Position numbers and translations under genes: made by a program. The notes below the pieces were generated by a model. It had not been told where the DNA came from, made no database searches, and worked only from the letters and a program-made list of their open reading frames with translations. A stretch of DNA of 16,656 nucleotides. Origin: Okeania hirsuta. Lineage in GTDB: Bacteria; Cyanobacteriota; Cyanobacteriia; Cyanobacteriales; Microcoleaceae. This document shows, piece after piece, positions 1,670-16,656 of the stretch; position 1 is the first letter of the stretch, and each line of letters opens with the position of its first letter. The stretch lies in assembly GCF_003838225.1 (NCBI RefSeq), contig NZ_RCBZ01000114.1. The stretch is one strand, 5' to 3'.

Positions 1670-1756
1670 TAGCAGTCGAAGGAAAGGTTAGGAGAAATAA
1701 AAAACTTAAAACTCAGACAAAGGAATATTTTTCCTTCTTCCCTCTTCCTTCTGCTA
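1670..1756. mobile_element. MITE-like element, copy A (~85 bp). Imperfect terminal inverted repeats GCAGTCGAAGGAAAGG / CCTTCTTCC..CTGC, a CT-rich interior and TA on both flanks.
   Basis: The left end TA|GCAGTCGAAGG matches the reverse complement of the right end CCTTCTGC|TA. A second copy at 15743-15852 shares the blocks GCAGTCGAAGGAAAGG, CTTAAAACTCAGACAA and TTCTGCTATA. The two copies differ in an internal variable segment and in CT-tract length. Confidence 0.5.
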
Positions 1757-1781: not shown

Positions 1782-2222
1782 CTACTTATATTCATTGTTA
1801 ATTTTTGAATAACTAGGAAAACTCAATAACCATTTCCTCATTTCATCAGATAATTTTTGCCTACTTCTACTTTGAGGATGAATACAAACGTGCTTCGTAA
1901 TAGCTCTTGCCCCCCACTTATCCTCTGTTTCTTTTAAAAAGACTTGATAGGAAATTTCAAACTCATCGTCTCTCCAACTTTTAGGAATTAATTCAATAGT
2001 TAACTCATCCCCACAAAACATCGGGCGACGAAAATCAACATTAGCATGAATAATTGGAATAGCTATTTCTTGATTACTAAAAAAAACTTTCAGATTAATA
2101 CCAAATTCTACTAAAGATGCTTCATAAGCTTCATGGCACATTGCTAAAACATTAGCAAAATAAACTACTCCAGCAGCATCGGTATCTTGAAAATGAACTA
2201 TTCTTGTATAGTAAAAAGACAT
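1782..2222 (-). CDS. 1,4-dihydroxy-2-naphthoyl-CoA thioesterase (hot-dog/4HBT fold; phylloquinone pathway)
   Basis: 146 aa. The N-terminus YTRIVHFQDTDAAGVVYFANVLAMCHEAYEASL and the VDFRRPMFCGDEL motif closely match the cyanobacterial Slr0204-type DHNA-CoA hydrolase as recalled from memory. Confidence 0.85.
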   Translation of the reverse strand: MSFYYTRIVHFQDTDAAGVVYFANVLAMCHEAYEASLVEFGINLKVFFSNQEIAIPIIHANVDFRRPMFCGDELTIELIPKSWRDDEFEISYQVFLKETEDKWGARAITKHVCIHPQSRSRQKLSDEMRKWLLSFPSYSKINNEYK

Positions 2223-2908: not shown

Positions 2909-4264
2909 TCAATACTTCTCAAAAACTGTTAAATTAGCTTTGAGAAAATCAATAAATTGTCGTGCCGTTCGCCCAGAGCGACCATTATATTTCGTAGCCC
3001 ATTGTAAAGCTTGATAGTCTAAATCTTCAGGATTTAGATTAATTTTTGCCTGTTTTGCCAGATGTCTAACAATTGTTAAATAAGTATCCTGGTTAGCAGG
3101 TTCAAAAGTTAAAGTTAAGCCAAAGCGATCGCTAAAAGAAAGCTTTTCTTGAACTGTATCCCAATTATGAACCTCATCACTATCTTTTGGGCGAGGGCGA
3201 TCGTTAAAAAATTCTCTAATTAAATGCCTTCTATTTGATGTAGCATAGACTACCACATTTGTTGGTCTAGCAGTTAAATTACCCTCTAAAACAACTTTAA
3301 GAGCTTTAAAAGTATCATCATCTTCTTCAAAGGAAAGGTCATCGACAAAGATAATAAATTTTTGTGGAATATCGCGTAATTTTTCTACAATTAATGGTAA
3401 ATCTTTTAGGTTTGATTTAGCCACTTCGACTAAACGAAGATTGCGTTGACTATACTCATTTAATAAGGCTTTTATTAAAGAGGATTTGCCAGAACCGCGA
3501 CTACCATAAAGTAATATATTAAGGGCTGAATATCCTGCTAGGAGAAATTCTGTATTTTTGATTAAGGCATCTTTTTGAAATTCATATCCGACCAATTCTT
3601 TTAATTCAACTGGGTCAGGGTAAGTAATAGTAAGTAGTTGACCGTTACGCCATTCAAAGGCAATTGATTCAGCAAATAAACCAGTGCCATTATGATGATA
3701 ATGAGTGGCTAAGGTCTCAATGGCATCTGCCCAATTTTCTAATTTTTTTAACTCGTCGTAGATAGCTTCTTTTTGTTGTGATTGTATTTCCCACGCAATA
3801 GGGGGATTCTCTAATTTAGCTATTGTTTTTACCCACTGACTAATTGTTTTACCACTGCACTGATAAAGATTTTGTAAAATTTGTAAATCATGTTTTGCAG
3901 CTGCAATTAAATTTGGAGATAGGCTGGTAATATTTATTTTTTGAACTTGTTGACTAAAGGGATTATCATCTTGAATAATCTGAGCAATTAGATATTCTTG
4001 CCAGGAAATATTTTGACTAGCAATATTTATAAACCAGTTACCATAAGCTTGAAGGCATTCTATAGCAACTCCATCATTTTTAGACAAAGATTCTAATAAT
4101 TGGATAAAAGCTTCACCCACTGTTTTTTTTAGAACAGACTGATATAACAATAGAGATGCTATTTGCTGTTGTAAGTTTTGAATTTTGGCTAACACTTGGG
4201 AACCTAAACAAGACATAATTAATGATATGATTGCCTTATTAAATAAAGGATCAGCACTTAGCAC
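2909..4264 (-). CDS. DUF815-family P-loop (AAA+-like) ATPase with an ~200 aa N-terminal extension
   Basis: 451 aa. Walker A is LLYGSRGSGKSSLIKAL, Walker B is IIFVDDLSF, and the C-terminal YNGRSGRTARQF motif is present. The tracked start at 4264 is GTG; an in-frame ATG (MSCLGSQ...) lies 48 nt downstream, so the true start is uncertain. Confidence 0.65.
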   Translation of the reverse strand: MLSADPLFNKAIISLIMSCLGSQVLAKIQNLQQQIASLLLYQSVLKKTVGEAFIQLLESLSKNDGVAIECLQAYGNWFINIASQNISWQEYLIAQIIQDDNPFSQQVQKINITSLSPNLIAAAKHDLQILQNLYQCSGKTISQWVKTIAKLENPPIAWEIQSQQKEAIYDELKKLENWADAIETLATHYHHNGTGLFAESIAFEWRNGQLLTITYPDPVELKELVGYEFQKDALIKNTEFLLAGYSALNILLYGSRGSGKSSLIKALLNEYSQRNLRLVEVAKSNLKDLPLIVEKLRDIPQKFIIFVDDLSFEEDDDTFKALKVVLEGNLTARPTNVVVYATSNRRHLIREFFNDRPRPKDSDEVHNWDTVQEKLSFSDRFGLTLTFEPANQDTYLTIVRHLAKQAKINLNPEDLDYQALQWATKYNGRSGRTARQFIDFLKANLTVFEKY

Positions 4265-5018: not shown

Positions 5019-5280
5019 AAAGAAACGTAAGTATTTAGCCGTCAGCTTTCAGCTCCATTAGAACTAATGACTATAGCCTTTAAAGCAGAAGTTACCATTG
5101 ACAGATTTTATCTAATTAAAAATATGAATTAAAAGTTTCCCTAGTAACTTCTAAAGTCTTAAAAAATGCTTACTTCATTTATTAATCAAGATGAGAGCTG
5201 ACCACTAATCACTGTTTGTGGAGCATTCAGGCACGGAAATCCTTATACCAATTTCATAAACTTGAGCTACTTAGGTTTGG

Positions 5281-5310: not shown

Positions 5311-5462
5311 GAGGTAAGGTGAGTAGCCTTACTTTTTGAATTTGGTATTACAAAGAAACAAAGAATATGGAAGAGATAAAAAAGTAGAAACTTGCTCAAT
5401 AGACATATAGATATCTCCAGAAAAGAGATAACAGGTAACAGGAAGAAATAATAGAAATCATC

Positions 5463-5520
5463 AATTATTTCTCCCTACTCCCCTACTCCCCTACTCCCTG
5501 CTCCCTACTCCCTACTCCCT
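5463..5520. repeat. Hepta/octanucleotide tandem repeat (CCCTACT/CCCCTACT) x~7, STRR-like. The same unit recurs at 10901-10917 and 11062-11080.
   Basis: Directly visible: ctccctactcccctactcccctactccctgctccctactccctactccct. The reverse complement shares the AGTAG core with the 5281-5310 array, so the two arrays are imperfect inverted repeats. Confidence 0.9.
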
Positions 5521-5630
5521 AAATTGGGATTAATCAACCCATTAGCCGTACCAAAAAGATTAATTGGACTCTTACCATCAGTAATTAAAACACTCTGAAG
5601 ACCAAGCCCCTACAACAACCTCGCCTGCAT

Positions 5631-7267
5631 TTATGGGCCAGCTTGAGCGATCGCCCGAATTGTCTCAGCCCCCAAAGCCTCCACTTTTTGCTGAAACTCA
5701 GTAGCAGTAATTTCAGCCATTTGCCTTGCCTTCTCAATCTCTAAATTATTCAGTGTCTGCTGATGGGCTAACTCAGTCTCCTGACGCGCCCTCAACTGAG
5801 CCATCTCAGCCTCATGGCGAATCCGTGCTGCTTCTACTTCCTGCTGCGCCAAATTCACCGCCAACTGGCCTTGAAAAGGAGATAACATATAAGCTTGAGG
5901 TCCATTGACTAATTTTAGTTCCCCACTTTGAACATCCCGTACATATATACCTTCATTTTTGTCTAGGGGAATAGCCTGAAGTTTTTCTAATACTTCTAAT
6001 TCCACTGGGGGAATATAATCTCTTGGCCCAGTAATCATCCATAAATCTCCTGGTTGCCGAGTAATAACGTTTGCTCCTGTTCCCTCGGTGAAAGTTTCCT
6101 CAACTCTGATTAGGAGTGCTTCTTGTTCACCAAGAATATAGACCTTTTTAATTCCTGTTTCTAAATCTTCTCCTGGGTGCAAAAAGAAAGATGTTCTGCC
6201 CTGACGCACTTCTTTCATACCCCACTGCGGTTTACCATCTGCATCTATGGGATTAGTTACTATGCACCATTCGCGATCGCTTAAAGTAGTGATTTTGACT
6301 TCTCCCACTACTTCTTCATAAACGTCGGGAATATGAATTTCAGCATCTGCAAAAGTAACTAACTATTCATATCCCGCTTTGCGTTGCTGACCAAAAATAT
6401 CAGTAAAAGTCCGTTTTGCTTTTAGATGTAGTGCTTGACGTTCGGTTAATACATAGGCATCAATAGTATCGACAATTTCTTCATCTACTCCAGGCAAATA
6501 AGCACCTTCTTCCCTGACCAACCATTATTCCCCAGTTCTACGTCTGTTACCTTGACGATCTATACAATTTTGTCGTGCCAGCAGTCGTAAGGCTTGGTTA
6601 GGTTTAATTATTTTAGCTATAACTGTGACTACCACTTCAACTTCTACCCTGGGAGTGTAAGTTCCTGGCCCCTCAAATAACCATTCATCCCCTGTCGTAC
6701 GAGTGACAGTTTGAGACTCTCCTGCAACGATAACTGTATCAGTAAAATCTCGTATTGCTTTGAGACGTAGAGTTTGGTTTGTGTCAATTACTTGTAGTTG
6801 AGTTACATCTTCTTCGAGTATTTCTCCTGGATATAGTGGGAAAGGGTCTTGAGCAAAGCGAATTTCCAGATCGCCATATTTGAGTCTAATTTAACCATAC
6901 TCATCGGCCACAAGTTGATCTGAACTATAGCAATGTGCGCTGGCATATTTACACATTATTTTTTGTACACCTTTTCTAAAATGCACTTTGAACTGGGCCT
7001 TGTAAATACCTGAGCGCTCATTGCTATATTTCTTAGTACAGGGTTAGCTGCTACACAATAATGGCGAGGTGGAACTACAATTGTCAGTTGTGGTTGTCAG
7101 ACTAACCTTTCTGCATCTCCAAGGGTAATGGTTTGAGGGCCTATTTCTAGTCTGATAACACCAGTGTTATTGTCAAGAACATGAATATACTGTTGTGGCT
7201 TCAGGAGAATTATACCATTGTTCTCTATTGTAATTGGATATTCTGTGGTACTTTTTATTTTACTCAT
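5631..7267 (-). pseudogene. Major vault protein (MVP)-like gene, decayed: four in-frame stops, one frame-breaking insertion, an internal deletion and a C-terminal truncation
   Basis: My manual minus-strand translation from the ATG at 7267 gives MSKIKSTTEYPITIENNGIILLKPQQYIHVLDNNTGVIRLEIGPQTITLGDAERLV*QPQLTIVVPPRHYCVAANPV... After the insertion it continues ...[88 protein letters not shown]...RRTGE*WLVREEGAYLPGVDEEIVDTIDAYVLTERQALHLKAKRTFTDIFGQQRKAGYE*LVTFADAEIHIPDVYEEVV and runs in frame into the tracked ORF 5631-6308 (...AIPLDKNEGIYVRDVQSGELKLVNGPQAYML...). These stretches align colinearly with human MVP repeats 1-7 as recalled from memory ([27 protein letters not shown]; [17 protein letters not shown]; [21 protein letters not shown]; TGEEWLV; AIPLDENEGIYVQDV) and with the extreme cap-helix end (IGPSTIRDLAVAGPE vs LGAETIRAIAQAGP). 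The stops are TGA at 7099-7097, TAA at 6893-6891, TAA at 6527-6525 and TAG at 6365-6363. Confidence 0.8.
6928..7026. mobile_element. MITE-like ~95 bp insertion inside the MVP-like pseudogene, with terminal inverted repeats GCAATGTGCGCTGG / CTGAGCGCTCATTGC and TA flanks
   Basis: The MVP frame is frame 0 upstream and shifts by 2 downstream. The intervening ~95 bp (length ≡2 mod 3) has no MVP counterpart and is bounded by 15/17-matching inverted repeats. Its ends (TATAGCAATG) resemble those of the 1670/15743 element (TATAGCAGTCG). Confidence 0.55.
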
Positions 7268-10600: not shown

Positions 10601-10916
10601 TCCTGAATAAAGGGAGGGGGGAGAGGATATATTTTAAACTTTTCTCCTGTTCCATAAATATTTAATCAAACTTGATATAACTGATACTAAATCTGATTTA
10701 GATAGGTTACTTGTTAAGGTAGTAAATATTTATCCAAATGGTTAAATTCAAACAAATCAATTTCTTAAAGTGCTGAAAGTGTTAGTTTTTCAGGAGTTAA
10801 TTCTTGAGCAAATTGGAAAACAAAATTTTCTTGCTGTTTAGTTTCTATTGTGTATTGAAGAGTTTCTCTGACCTTAGCGATCGCCTCACTATCAGTTCCG
10901 GTGCTCCCTACTCCCT

Positions 10917-11062
10917 CTCTTGGTGAGCGTTCCTTGCCTTGGTCGATTGGATATGGCGTTAGCGCAACGGATCTGCCAGAGCGGGTTTCCTCGCCATTTC
11001 ACCCTACGGGAAGCTCCAAAGATCGACCGCTTGCGTCTGTCGCACCCCGCGGGGTCGCACCG
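10917..11062. other. GC-rich, palindrome-dense ~145 bp segment bracketed by direct copies of the STRR-like unit (C)TGCTCCCTACTCCCT. Candidate structured RNA or mobile-element remnant.
   Basis: It stands out against the AT-rich background. Long-range complementarity exists between GGTCGATTGG (10941-10950) and CCAAAGATCGACC (11017-11029). A perfect 12-nt palindrome ACCCCGCGGGGT lies at 11044-11055. GCGTTAGCGCAAC has near-palindromic relatives at 11213-11232 and 11292-11304. The flanking direct repeats are 10899-10917 and 11056-11080. Confidence 0.3.
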
Positions 11063-11430
11063 CTGCTCCCTACTCCCTAAATTTTTGATTGTGGTTATTC
11101 AAACAGACATGATATAATAGTAAAAATCCTTAAAAAAAATTTAGAGACGCGATCGCCCACATCTCTAAAATTACTATTCGACTATTTCAGCCAGAATTGA
11201 TATCCTCTCGACGTTGCGCTTAGGCGACAACGTGGGATTCCTAACCATCACTGATTAGGTTTTTCTGTTCCCTCTTGCCTCCTCCGGAGGAGCTGCGCTA
11301 ACAGAGGATCTGCCTCCGAGGTCTTTCCCTCTTTTTGGTCTTAAGGTCGCTCCACAGTACGTCACCAATCCGATGGCTCCCCTAGACACTGCTAGCCCAG
11401 CAGCCTCAATTTAAGTATTATAGCACATGG

Positions 11431-14334: not shown

Positions 14335-15666
14335 CTAATTGCTTGATTTACTCAAATCTACATAACCATACAAATCGTAAACATCTGCATCTGTAATCAT
14401 CACTGGCACAATTGAACCCAAACGAGCTTTACCTTGGAGATAAACAAGTCCATCCACTTCTGGAGAAAACCGTGGTGACCTACCAATCAACTCTCCTGTC
14501 TGAGGATTTTCCTGTTCAATCAGTACATCAACTACTTGTCCCACTGATTTTTGATTCTGTTTTCCAGATATGGGCTGCTGGACTTGCATAATTTTTTCTC
14601 TACGGGTGTCCATCACTGCTTTGGGCAACTGATTAGGCAAACTATAGGCGGGGGTTCCTTCTTCTGGAGAGAAAGTAAATACCCCAACATGATCGAACTC
14701 GTGACGCTTGACAAATTTCACTAAATGTGCATGATGATCTTCCGTTTCACCAGGGAAGCCCACTATAAAGGTTGTCCGCAACACGGCATTGGGCATAGCT
14801 GCTTTTATTTTTTCGATTATATCATCATTAACCCGACCTTGCCAAGGTCTATTCATGGCCCGCAATATTTGGGGATGAGAATGTTGTAAAGGCAAGTCTA
14901 GATAGGGTAAAATATTGGGAGTTTCTTGAATAGCAGCTATTACTTTGGGAGTCAAACCTGTAGGATAGGCATAGTGCATTCTAATCCAGGGTATATCAAC
15001 TTTTCCTAGGGCGCGGAGAAGTTCGGCGAGTTTGGGTTCGCCATAAATATCGATTCCATAGTTAGTGGTTATTTGGGAGATGAGGATGATTTCTTTTACC
15101 CCTTGGTCTGCTAGTTGTTGAGCTTCAGTGACAATAGATTCTATGGTGCGCGATCGCTGATTTCCTCGTAGATGAGGAATAATACAAAAAGCACAACGAT
15201 AATCACAACCTTCAGCTATTCGCACATAAGCAACTCCTTCGGATGTGGTGCGGTAACGTGGGGTTGTTTCATCGGCAATATAGGTGGGTTGAGGGGAGAC
15301 TTCTGTGACGCGATCGCCTTTTTCTACCCGTTGCATCACATCAACTATTTTATGATAATCACCAGTCCCCACAAGTGCTACTGCTTCTGGTAACTCTGCA
15401 AGTAATTCTTCTTGGAAGTGTTGCGCCATACAACCTGCGATGACTATTTTTTTGTTAGCTTCTGCTAATTCTACCAAAGTACGAACAGATTCTTCTCTGG
15501 CAGTTTGAATAAAACTACAGGTGTTAACGACTACATAATCTGCTAATTCTTCGTTAGCATCTACTTGATAACCCGCTTGTGCTAGTAAACCTATGATATG
15601 TTCGGTATCGATACGATTTTTTTCGCACCCTAAGTGAGAGAATGAAATGGTAGGTTTTGTAGACAT
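14335..15666 (-). CDS. rimO: Ribosomal protein S12 methylthiotransferase RimO (radical-SAM MTTase with TRAM domain)
   Basis: 443 aa. The N-terminal MTTase domain (FSHLGCEKN…NTCSF) is followed by the radical-SAM CDYRCAFC motif and a C-terminal TRAM domain. ATG at 15666. Confidence 0.9.
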
Positions 15667-15742
15667 TTAGAGTTCTGAGTTATTAATTTTGATCGGGAAT
15701 AGTCTTTATAATATAGCATATTACCTATGGCCAAATAAGGTA

Positions 15743-15852
15743 TGGCAGTCGAAGGAAAGGGTGCGAACAGATCGAGAGCTTAAAACTCAGACAACACAAT
15801 ATTTTTTCTTTTTCCTTCTTCCTTCTTTACTTCTTCCTTCTTCTTTCTGCTA
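15743..15852. mobile_element. MITE-like element, copy B (~106 bp). Left end TG|GCAGTCGAAGGAAAGG, right end CTTCTTTCTGC|TA.
   Basis: It shares ~16-bp identical blocks with copy A (1670-1756) and has a longer CT-rich tract. It lies between the rimO start and the ompA-like gene end. Confidence 0.5.
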
Positions 15853-15970
15853 TAAAGCAAGTCAAAGGTCTTAAACAGACAAAAACTGGCATTAAATCCT
15901 AGAATTTGGCATCTGCCAGTCGAAAAATAAGAGTTAAAAATTAATATTGATTTTGTGAAGAAGTTCAAAG

Positions 15971-16656
15971 TTAATTAGCGGGTGTCAAAATAATTACTGT
16001 TCGCTGATTGACATCAGCAGCAGGATCGCTACCAGGGAGTGGTTGAGAAAATCCCATTCCTTTGCCAACAACCTGATATGGTAAATTCTGCTGTTTCAAA
16101 TATTCGACTACTGCATTTGCTCGGTCTTGAGATATTTCTTGGTTTAACTGAGCACCACCGACCTGAGATGTATGACCTTCAACTCTAATCGTAACTTTAT
16201 TAGGATCGTATTCTTTAATTTCTGAGATGAGACTATTTATAGTTTGCTCTGCTTGGGGAGATAATTCAAATTCATCAAATCCAAATTTTACTTGACCTAA
16301 AGTTTTGGCTTTACTCAAATTCTTGCCTTGTGGTTGAGATGTTGTAGATGTGTTAGTAGAGGTAGCAGCAGAAGTTTCGATTTCTGGCGATGATGTAGCA
16401 GTTGGTTGTGCAGTTCCAGATCCAGAGGTAGTAGTAATATTAGTAGTAGGTGATACGGTCGCAGATGGAGAAGTAGATACTGAGCTAGTAGTTGTTTCAG
16501 TGTCTGTGGTTTCTGTAGTTGTAGTTATAGACTCTGCTTCAGTGGTTGTTGTATCAGTTGTAATAGGAGTGGGAGACTCTGCTGTAGTAGTTGTTTCGGT
16601 TTCTGTGGTTTCTGTAGTTGTAGTTATAGACTCTGCTTCAGTGGTTGTTGTATCAG
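15971..16656 (-). CDS. OmpA-family (peptidoglycan-binding OmpA_C domain) protein, 5'-partial. A Thr/Ser/Glu-rich tandem-repeat linker precedes the OmpA_C domain.
   Basis: The C-terminal 115 aa (…TIRVEGHTSQVGGAQLNQEISQDRANAVVEYL…) is an OmpA_C-like fold. The open frame continues upstream without a stop to the window edge (…TTTTEAESITTTTETTETETTTT…). Confidence 0.75.
   Translation of the reverse strand, partial: DTTTTEAESITTTTETTETETTTTAESPTPITTDTTTTEAESITTTTETTDTETTTSSVSTSPSATVSPTTNITTTSGSGTAQPTATSSPEIETSAATSTNTSTTSQPQGKNLSKAKTLGQVKFGFDEFELSPQAEQTINSLISEIKEYDPNKVTIRVEGHTSQVGGAQLNQEISQDRANAVVEYLKQQNLPYQVVGKGMGFSQPLPGSDPAADVNQRTVIILTPAN
16494..16656. repeat. 99-bp (33-codon) tandem repeat, ≥1.6 copies, inside the OmpA-family gene
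   Basis: gtttctgtagttgtagttatagactctgcttcagtggttgttgtatcag occurs at 16509-16557 and again at 16608-16656. The repeat is truncated by the window edge. Confidence 0.7.

Follow-up and report, generated by a model that had tools for sequence, protein, structure and literature searches.

MITEs derived from IS630/Tc1-mariner elements, such as Correia of Neisseria and Stowaway of plants, are non-coding units of about 100-150 nt that occur in high copy number in intergenic DNA. Their ends are inverted repeats, and the TA found on either side results from duplication of a TA target. Duplication of TA is a hallmark of the IS630/Tc1-mariner transposases. In the cyanobacteria Anabaena and Nostoc, a MITE named Nezha was reportedly described by Zhou et al. 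in 2008, with ISNpu3-like elements as its reported partner. Mazel et al. are said to have described heptamer tandem repeats (STRR) of cyanobacteria in 1990, and Elhai reportedly described small dispersed repeats nested in cyanobacterial heptamer repeats in 2008.

Here we analyze a 16,656-nt stretch of the Okeania hirsuta genome (contig NZ_RCBZ01000114.1 of assembly GCF_003838225.1), hereafter called the window, in which one short repeat is found twice. The repeat belongs to an Okeania family that is like Correia and Stowaway in its size, its lack of a gene, its abundance in intergenic DNA, its inverted ends and its TA flanks. The Correia inverted repeat likewise starts with TATAG, a likeness that holds at the level of description only. 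Unlike both, the Okeania family has an internal heptamer microsatellite, looks confined to one Okeania sub-clade and has no IS630-type partner or DDE_3 motif in the DNA sampled. Nezha, also compared by description only, is similar in lifestyle, as it is cyanobacterial, with inverted ends, direct repeats, A+T-rich insertion and a hairpin fold, but differs in its heterocystous Nostocales hosts and its reported partner. STRRs share the period-7 tandem tract, though with the internal tract of the Okeania element and not with the whole. In Okeania the tract is only part of a larger unit, which has inverted repeats and TA at its limits, and CCTTCTT is not a classical STRR unit. A 17-20-nt unit (TAGATAACTAAACGCC) nested in the Okeania tracts is reminiscent of the small dispersed repeats of Nostoc.

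Two further systems share some of these traits. A MITE of Porphyromonas gingivalis is also a bacterial MITE with an internal tandem repeat, but it is from another phylum, has another sequence, and its repeat is a minisatellite rather than a 7-nt microsatellite (PMC4596501). REPs and REPINs with their RAYT transposases (PMC3116915) are likewise short, intergenic, high-copy and hairpin-forming and are homogenized within genomes. REPs are 20-40-nt palindromes in inverted pairs with no TA duplication, compared to a single unit of about 90-110 nt with terminal inverted repeats in Okeania. In a survey of prokaryotes, Okeania KiyG1 and O. hirsuta had the highest MITE diversity of all (PMC11602168). 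The motifs of the element described here were not found in print in the literature searched, and we file the family as new to a kind, the MITE, that is already known.

Results

The window has two complete copies of the repeat, both on the + strand, on which coordinates are given unless stated otherwise. Copy A is at 1670-1756 (TAGCAG...CTGCTA, 87 nt) and copy B at 15743-15852 (TGGCAG...CTGCTA, 110 nt). Both were found by alignment and are matched by nhmmer with E=3.4e-17 and E=5.2e-19, respectively. A repeat search of the window recovers the pair independently (repeat families D5 and D10). The block GCAGTCGAAGGAAAGG is present at 1672-1687 and 15745-15760 and the block CTTAAAACTCAGACAA at 1705-1720 and 15779-15794. 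These are the sole two window matches to each at up to three mismatches, with 0.07 and 0.45 expected by chance. In the pairwise alignment the copies also share AATATTTTT, a CT-rich heptamer tract and the end CTGCTATA. The CT-rich tract is 22 nt longer in copy B than in copy A.

The ends of both copies are inverted repeats, TATAGCAG and CTGCTATA. Three of the four occurrences of TATAGCAG in the window (0.6 expected) are element ends. The left inverted repeat of copy A (TAGCAGTCGAAGGAAAGG, 1670-1687) pairs with 1739-1756 in folds. Copy A is flanked by a TA on the left (1668-1669), a putative target-site duplication, and by a TA on the right (1757-1758), both seen in the sequence and in the family-wide flank logo. 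The sequence also has a TA on each side of copy B (15741-15742 and 15853-15854), in which the first base pair of the element is mutated, giving TG for TA just before GCAG. The conserved core of copy A (CTTAAAACTCAGACAA, 1705-1720) is 90-99% conserved in the family consensus, with part of this block demanded by the seeding pattern. The heptamer tract of copy A (CCTTCTT CCCTCTT CCTTCT, 1733-1752) overlaps the right inverted repeat, and that of copy B is a microsatellite of about six CTTCTTC units at 15804-15848, for which Tandem Repeats Finder gives a period of 7 and 5.7 copies. Beyond the TATA...TATA limits, the sequences around copies A and B are unrelated to each other, and so the copies are not part of a segmental duplication.

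The stop of a thioesterase gene (1782-2222, minus strand) is followed 25 nt further on by copy A. Copy B has the stop of an OmpA-like gene on one side and the start of rimO (14335-15666, minus strand) on the other. Neither copy has an ORF of its own among the window ORFs. A sequence-only reading of the window had reported one repeat at these two places, with inverted-repeat ends, TA flanks (TG at the left of copy B) and these gene neighbors. Our coordinates, aligned blocks and gene positions agree with it throughout.

A vestige of a third copy, with the heptamer-tract end only (CTTCCTTCTTCCTTTTCTG), is at 2255-2273. The orthologous site in Okeania sp. SIO2C9 (locus L122, 567-636) holds a near-complete copy, after which comes a 1.3-kb array of tandem repeats, each about 135 nt long. 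The RimO protein of the window is identical to one encoded on contig JAAHGC010000034.1 of GCA_010672625.1. Just upstream of rimO, about 60 nt (window 15667-15740; AATATGCTATATT..AAAGACTGTTGC..ATAACT) are conserved from Okeania to Trichodesmium, and further upstream all sequence turns over. This block is probably the rimO promoter or leader, and copy B is about 15 nt upstream of it. At about the same place before rimO, Dapis has a long (AAGAAGG)n tract without the 5' module of the element (L129, 9577-9661), which is either what is left of a copy or a heptamer array in its own right.

We scanned a collection of species-representative genomes with the gapped pattern GCAGTCGAAGG-N15-45-AAAACTCAGAC, for whose 22 fixed bases about two chance matches are expected. 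At least 118 loci carry this strict pattern. Among the matches listed, at least 116 are true copies in eight Okeania-type genomes, and the other two are chance matches in high-GC bacteria. Among those listed, Okeania sp. SIO2C9 has at least 25 pattern loci, SIO1I7 at least 21, SIO2B3 at least 18, O. hirsuta at least 15, KiyG1 and SIO3B5 at least 11 each, a "Cyanobacteriota" MAG from a tar biofilm at least 10 and a Microcoleaceae MAG at least 5. The pattern fixes 11 bases at either of its ends, and conservation there is partly by construction. With a profile of the 5' module, 164 copies were found in 0.95 Mb of retrieved loci, about 41 of them beyond the seeded ones. The profile also found two copies per 21 kb in the loci that were retrieved via the RimO protein, independently of the pattern. 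By rough extrapolation, the copy number would be on the order of 100 to 1,000 per genome.

Even at E<=10, the loci from Trichodesmium erythraeum (21 kb), Okeania sp. SIO3I5 (26 kb) and Dapis (26 kb) yielded no copy. Viral contigs gave no pattern match, and the three matches in metagenome contigs all fall in high-GC DNA and are due to chance. In the limited sample covered here, the family looks restricted to a single sub-clade of Okeania. The flanks of non-orthologous copies are unrelated, and the copies are thus dispersed over unrelated sites. The sequence-only reading had proposed a family of non-autonomous, TA-flanked elements and had named as the case against it a lone pair of copies inside a segmental duplication. 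The number of copies and the unrelated flanks of copies A and B bear out the former.

The consensus starts with TA followed by TAGCAGTCGAAGGAAAGG, a variable patch of 5-7 nt and the core GACAKATCAAAAGCTTAAAACTCAGACAAC, also written AAAAGCTTAAAACTCAGACAAC. The 3' part consists of a second variable patch, ATTTTT, (CCTTCTT)n and CCTTCTGCTA, followed by TA. Full copies (n=82) are 72-297 nt long with a median of 97. Most are flanked as TATA/GCAG...CTGC/TATA, the four left flank positions being T in 77, A in 82, T in 79 and A in 72 of the 82. The terminal inverted repeats are imperfect. The ends are conserved across the family and pair with each other in single-strand folds, TATAGCAG-TC-GAAGGAA with TTCCTTC-CTGCTATA. 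The right half of the element is built of period-7 units in tandem, of which copy B has 5.7 and L031 has 10.1. Longer copies hold nested foreign inserts, mostly within the heptamer tract, for example six tandem repeats of a 20-nt unit (CTCCTAGATAACTAAACGCC) in the L056 copy (5620-5830). Related families have the TATAGCAG end in common with this one but have other heptamers or other interiors.

The 17-20-nt unit (CTCCTAGATAACTAAACGCC) is also nested in the heptamer tracts of copies in L011, L027, L036, L042, L069, L084 and L117, and its 16-nt core has 26 matches in 1.07 Mb. The window itself has other dispersed repeat families, at 1049-1085 and 5192-5228 (inverted), at 5408 and at about 11098. 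In the retrieved loci GAATGCTGCGCAAACAGC has 47 matches, TAGACATCTCCAAAA 54 and ATATCATGTCCGGTTGAA 63. In T. erythraeum, TAGACATCTCCAAAA forms the end of an IS5/DDE_Tnp_4-type remnant (L130, 4390-5537). The window also has tracts of another heptamer repeat (CTCCCTA / TCCCTAC), at 5495-5520, 10898-10916 and 11060-11078, and this repeat expands upstream of rimO in SIO1I7, SIO2B3, SIO2C9 and KiyG1. At 16442-16639, in the upstream part of the OmpA-like gene, two tandem 99-nt units that are 78% identical encode a Thr/Glu-rich repeat region.

Only one of the 111 copies that could be placed is inside a long ORF. Where the neighboring genes are co-directional, 37 copies are oriented with them and 32 against, and a further 27 lie between convergent and 14 between divergent genes. 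The two window copies do share one orientation relative to the minus-strand genes, as the sequence-only reading had pointed out, but given the family-wide counts this is a coincidence. Weaker profile matches are copies that have decayed, been truncated or become chimeric, and their mutations affect every position. Intergenic spread, the lack of a strand bias and decayed or nested copies are traits of a transposable-element family and not of a strand-specific RNA or a regulatory site.

Copy A has orthologues in KiyG1, SIO2C9 and SIO1I7, with flanks that are 94-97% identical. Copy B has orthologues in SIO2B3, SIO1I7, SIO2C9 and KiyG1, where other repeats are inserted inside and beside it. SIO2C2 is without copy B, the whole spacer being different, and has an extra copy at L128 21046; at both places the DNA around the site is rearranged. 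Every pair of sites compared across species is occupied in both, which follows from the way the loci were collected. The lengths of orthologous copies differ by whole heptamers (21, 14 and 21 nt), as explained by replication slippage.

In 26 orthologous pairs, divergence is 6% in the flanks and lower in the core columns outside the seeding pattern. It is higher in two patches, columns 20-26 and 56-61 of the 5' module (in copy A, window 1687-1693 and about 1721-1727), where 15-31% of the pairs differ per column, 3-5 times above the flanking DNA. In orthologous copies these patches switch between the two major alleles of the family, TTAGG and GCGCGG. The alignments suggest that ectopic gene conversion among copies may be behind the swapping of alleles. 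Mutagenesis of the DGR type was also considered for the variable patch and dropped, as the changes are not adenine-specific and are swaps between common alleles.

We searched for empty sites by joining the flanks of 75-88 full copies and comparing them by blast with all retrieved loci. Only orthologous occupied sites and one paralogous empty site were recovered. The latter is in L082, where the element at 2951 is missing from a 91%-identical paralogous segment (4073-4148). The limits of the indel fall at the element ends, and the most plausible remainder is a single TA, with 2 nt made ambiguous by a nearby indel. No clean orthologous empty site was found in the thioesterase and rimO neighborhoods of SIO2C9, SIO1I7, KiyG1, SIO2C2, Dapis, SIO3I5 and T. 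erythraeum. These neighborhoods either hold a copy or have intergenic DNA that is too heavily rearranged for alignment. The check for empty sites in relatives that the sequence-only reading had called for yielded a paralogous site, at which about a TA remains, and no orthologous one.

A second, likewise indirect view of the target came from a sister element in a coding sequence. The window at 5631-7267 (minus strand) has a pseudogene for a homologue of eukaryotic major vault protein (MVP), in which at least four stop codons lie in frame besides a MITE insertion. The region is mostly replaced in SIO2C9 and SIO2C2. The sister MITE, TA-TAGCAATG...CATTGCTA-TA, is at 6926-7028 on the minus strand and was recovered by repeat search (I4). 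It is 99 nt long and has the same TATAGCA termini as copies A and B. Further copies are in L047, L107, L038 and L092, the one in L038 being nested in a repeat with the ends AGGACTTACGC. When the sister MITE is removed and exactly 2 nt (TA) are left, both the frame and a 14-residue spacing are restored relative to rat MVP in an ungapped alignment (E=7e-138). With four bases left, the frame would be broken. A single TA target was therefore duplicated by the sister insertion, or at the least flanks it. The sequence-only reading had taken the MVP-gene insertion and the two window copies for one family. The TATAGCA ends are indeed common to them, and the MVP-gene insertion behaves as a TA-duplicating one, but the sister is otherwise a different family, with the termini alone in common. 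As the terminal bases are the same in both families, the enzymes that moved them very likely belong to one class.

In about 1.1 Mb of Okeania DNA we looked for end pairs that face inward at a distance of 400-4000 nt, for TATAGCAG ends that stand alone and for ORFs between candidate ends, and we found no autonomous element whose ends match. The candidate end pairs enclosed ordinary genes only (a short-chain dehydrogenase and a RadC-like gene) and were set aside. The IS630 DDE_3 motif P-E-x-N-P-I-E..W is absent from six-frame translations of the Okeania loci (about 1.1 Mb), its sole match being a remnant in T. erythraeum L130. When ORFs of at least 150 aa were clustered, genes of the TnpB/IS605 type were the only multi-copy transposase-like genes in the sample. 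They were rejected as a partner, as their element ends are unrelated and have no TATAGCAG. The IS5-type remnant of T. erythraeum was also rejected, its ends (TAGACATCTCC) being different. The family may be extinct, or the partner may be rare.

Discussion

We conclude, with a probability of roughly 85%, that the repeat is a MITE that inserts at TA. Such an element would be a short non-coding unit without a gene, moved in trans by a transposase that recognizes its inverted ends (TAGCAGTCGAAGG... / ...CCTTCTGCTA). It would insert at a TA dinucleotide and duplicate it, giving TA-element-TA. From the TA flanks and the sister insertion we infer that the mover was a DDE transposase of the TA-duplicating (IS630/Tc1-mariner-like) kind. 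The family would have multiplied in the ancestor of an Okeania sub-clade, and many copies are now old, being common to orthologous sites across species. They decay via point mutation, truncation and the nested insertion of other small repeats. Growth and shrinkage of the heptamer microsatellite (CCTTCTT)n in the right half by replication slippage would account for most length differences between copies.

The repeat might instead be a structured small RNA or a 3'-UTR/terminator module, conserved for a transcript hairpin that acts on the neighboring genes, an option that the sequence-only reading had kept. Both strands of copy A fold better than their shuffled controls (z = -3.9 and -2.5), both window copies are downstream of minus-strand genes, and the core is less diverged than the flanks between orthologues. 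However, copy B folds no better than its shuffles (z = -1.1 and +1.25), the family has no strand preference relative to genes, and RNAalifold on 36 copies gives -2.2 kcal/mol with 0 compensatory pairs. A search of Rfam found no match at the gathering threshold or at E<=1, and motif scans found neither a T-run terminator nor a promoter-like site in either copy. The hairpin itself is nothing more than the paired terminal inverted repeats. With random orientation and no covariation, a role as an RNA is disfavored and appears highly improbable to us. No more credible is a derivative of IS200/IS605 (PATE), mobilized as single-stranded DNA by the Y1 transposase TnpA and inserted 3' of TATA or TA without duplication, the second TA being the element's own. 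A duplicated TA and a TA target next to a TA-ended element are indistinguishable by sequence alone, and the TnpB/IS605 type is the only kind of multi-copy transposon gene in the sampled DNA. The ends of IS200/IS605 elements such as IS608 and ISDra2 are separate subterminal hairpins and not inverted repeats of each other. The termini of the Okeania element, by contrast, are inverted repeats that pair with each other. The sampled TnpB elements lack TATAGCAG ends, and the sole copy adjoining a tnpB is truncated by it and on the opposite strand.

Spread by recombination or gene conversion, as in REP- or STRR-like repeats, or by a tyrosine (RAYT-type) enzyme, would need no transposase. In line with this, a transposase partner was not found in about 1.1 Mb of sampled Okeania DNA. 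The switching of patch alleles and a core more uniform than its flanks point to exchange between copies, and heptamer tandem repeats are a classical cyanobacterial repeat type. Gene conversion, however, requires a pre-existing copy at each site and cannot make new TA-bounded sites. The sharp TA limits, the inverted ends and the TA-duplicating sister insertion in a coding sequence are signatures of cut-and-paste movement. The unit, at about 90-110 nt with terminal inverted repeats, is also not a 20-40-nt REP palindrome. We therefore regard spread without a transposase as quite unlikely and retain the TA-inserting MITE. A CRISPR-like or attC-like origin was dropped, as there is no array or matching structure in the element.

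There is a slim chance that the family is more than decaying junk. Frequent ectopic gene conversion could keep hundreds of copies in concert. The element could have been co-opted, with a core that might bind a protein or serve as an RNA module. By forming a triplex, the homopurine mirror-repeat tract (AAGAAGG)n might be a hotspot that drives the extreme turnover of intergenic DNA in Okeania.

As copies of an ordinary mobile element, the look-alike intergenic stretches of the window are explained and can be removed from the candidates for regulatory RNA. The sister insertion dates part of the decay of a rare bacterial vault-protein gene. The consensus and search pattern are now at hand for one abundant repeat family of Okeania, which is useful for repeat masking and for strain typing by the length of the heptamer tract. 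The family is also useful for studying how nested repeats, slippage and possibly gene conversion reshape the intergenic DNA of cyanobacteria.
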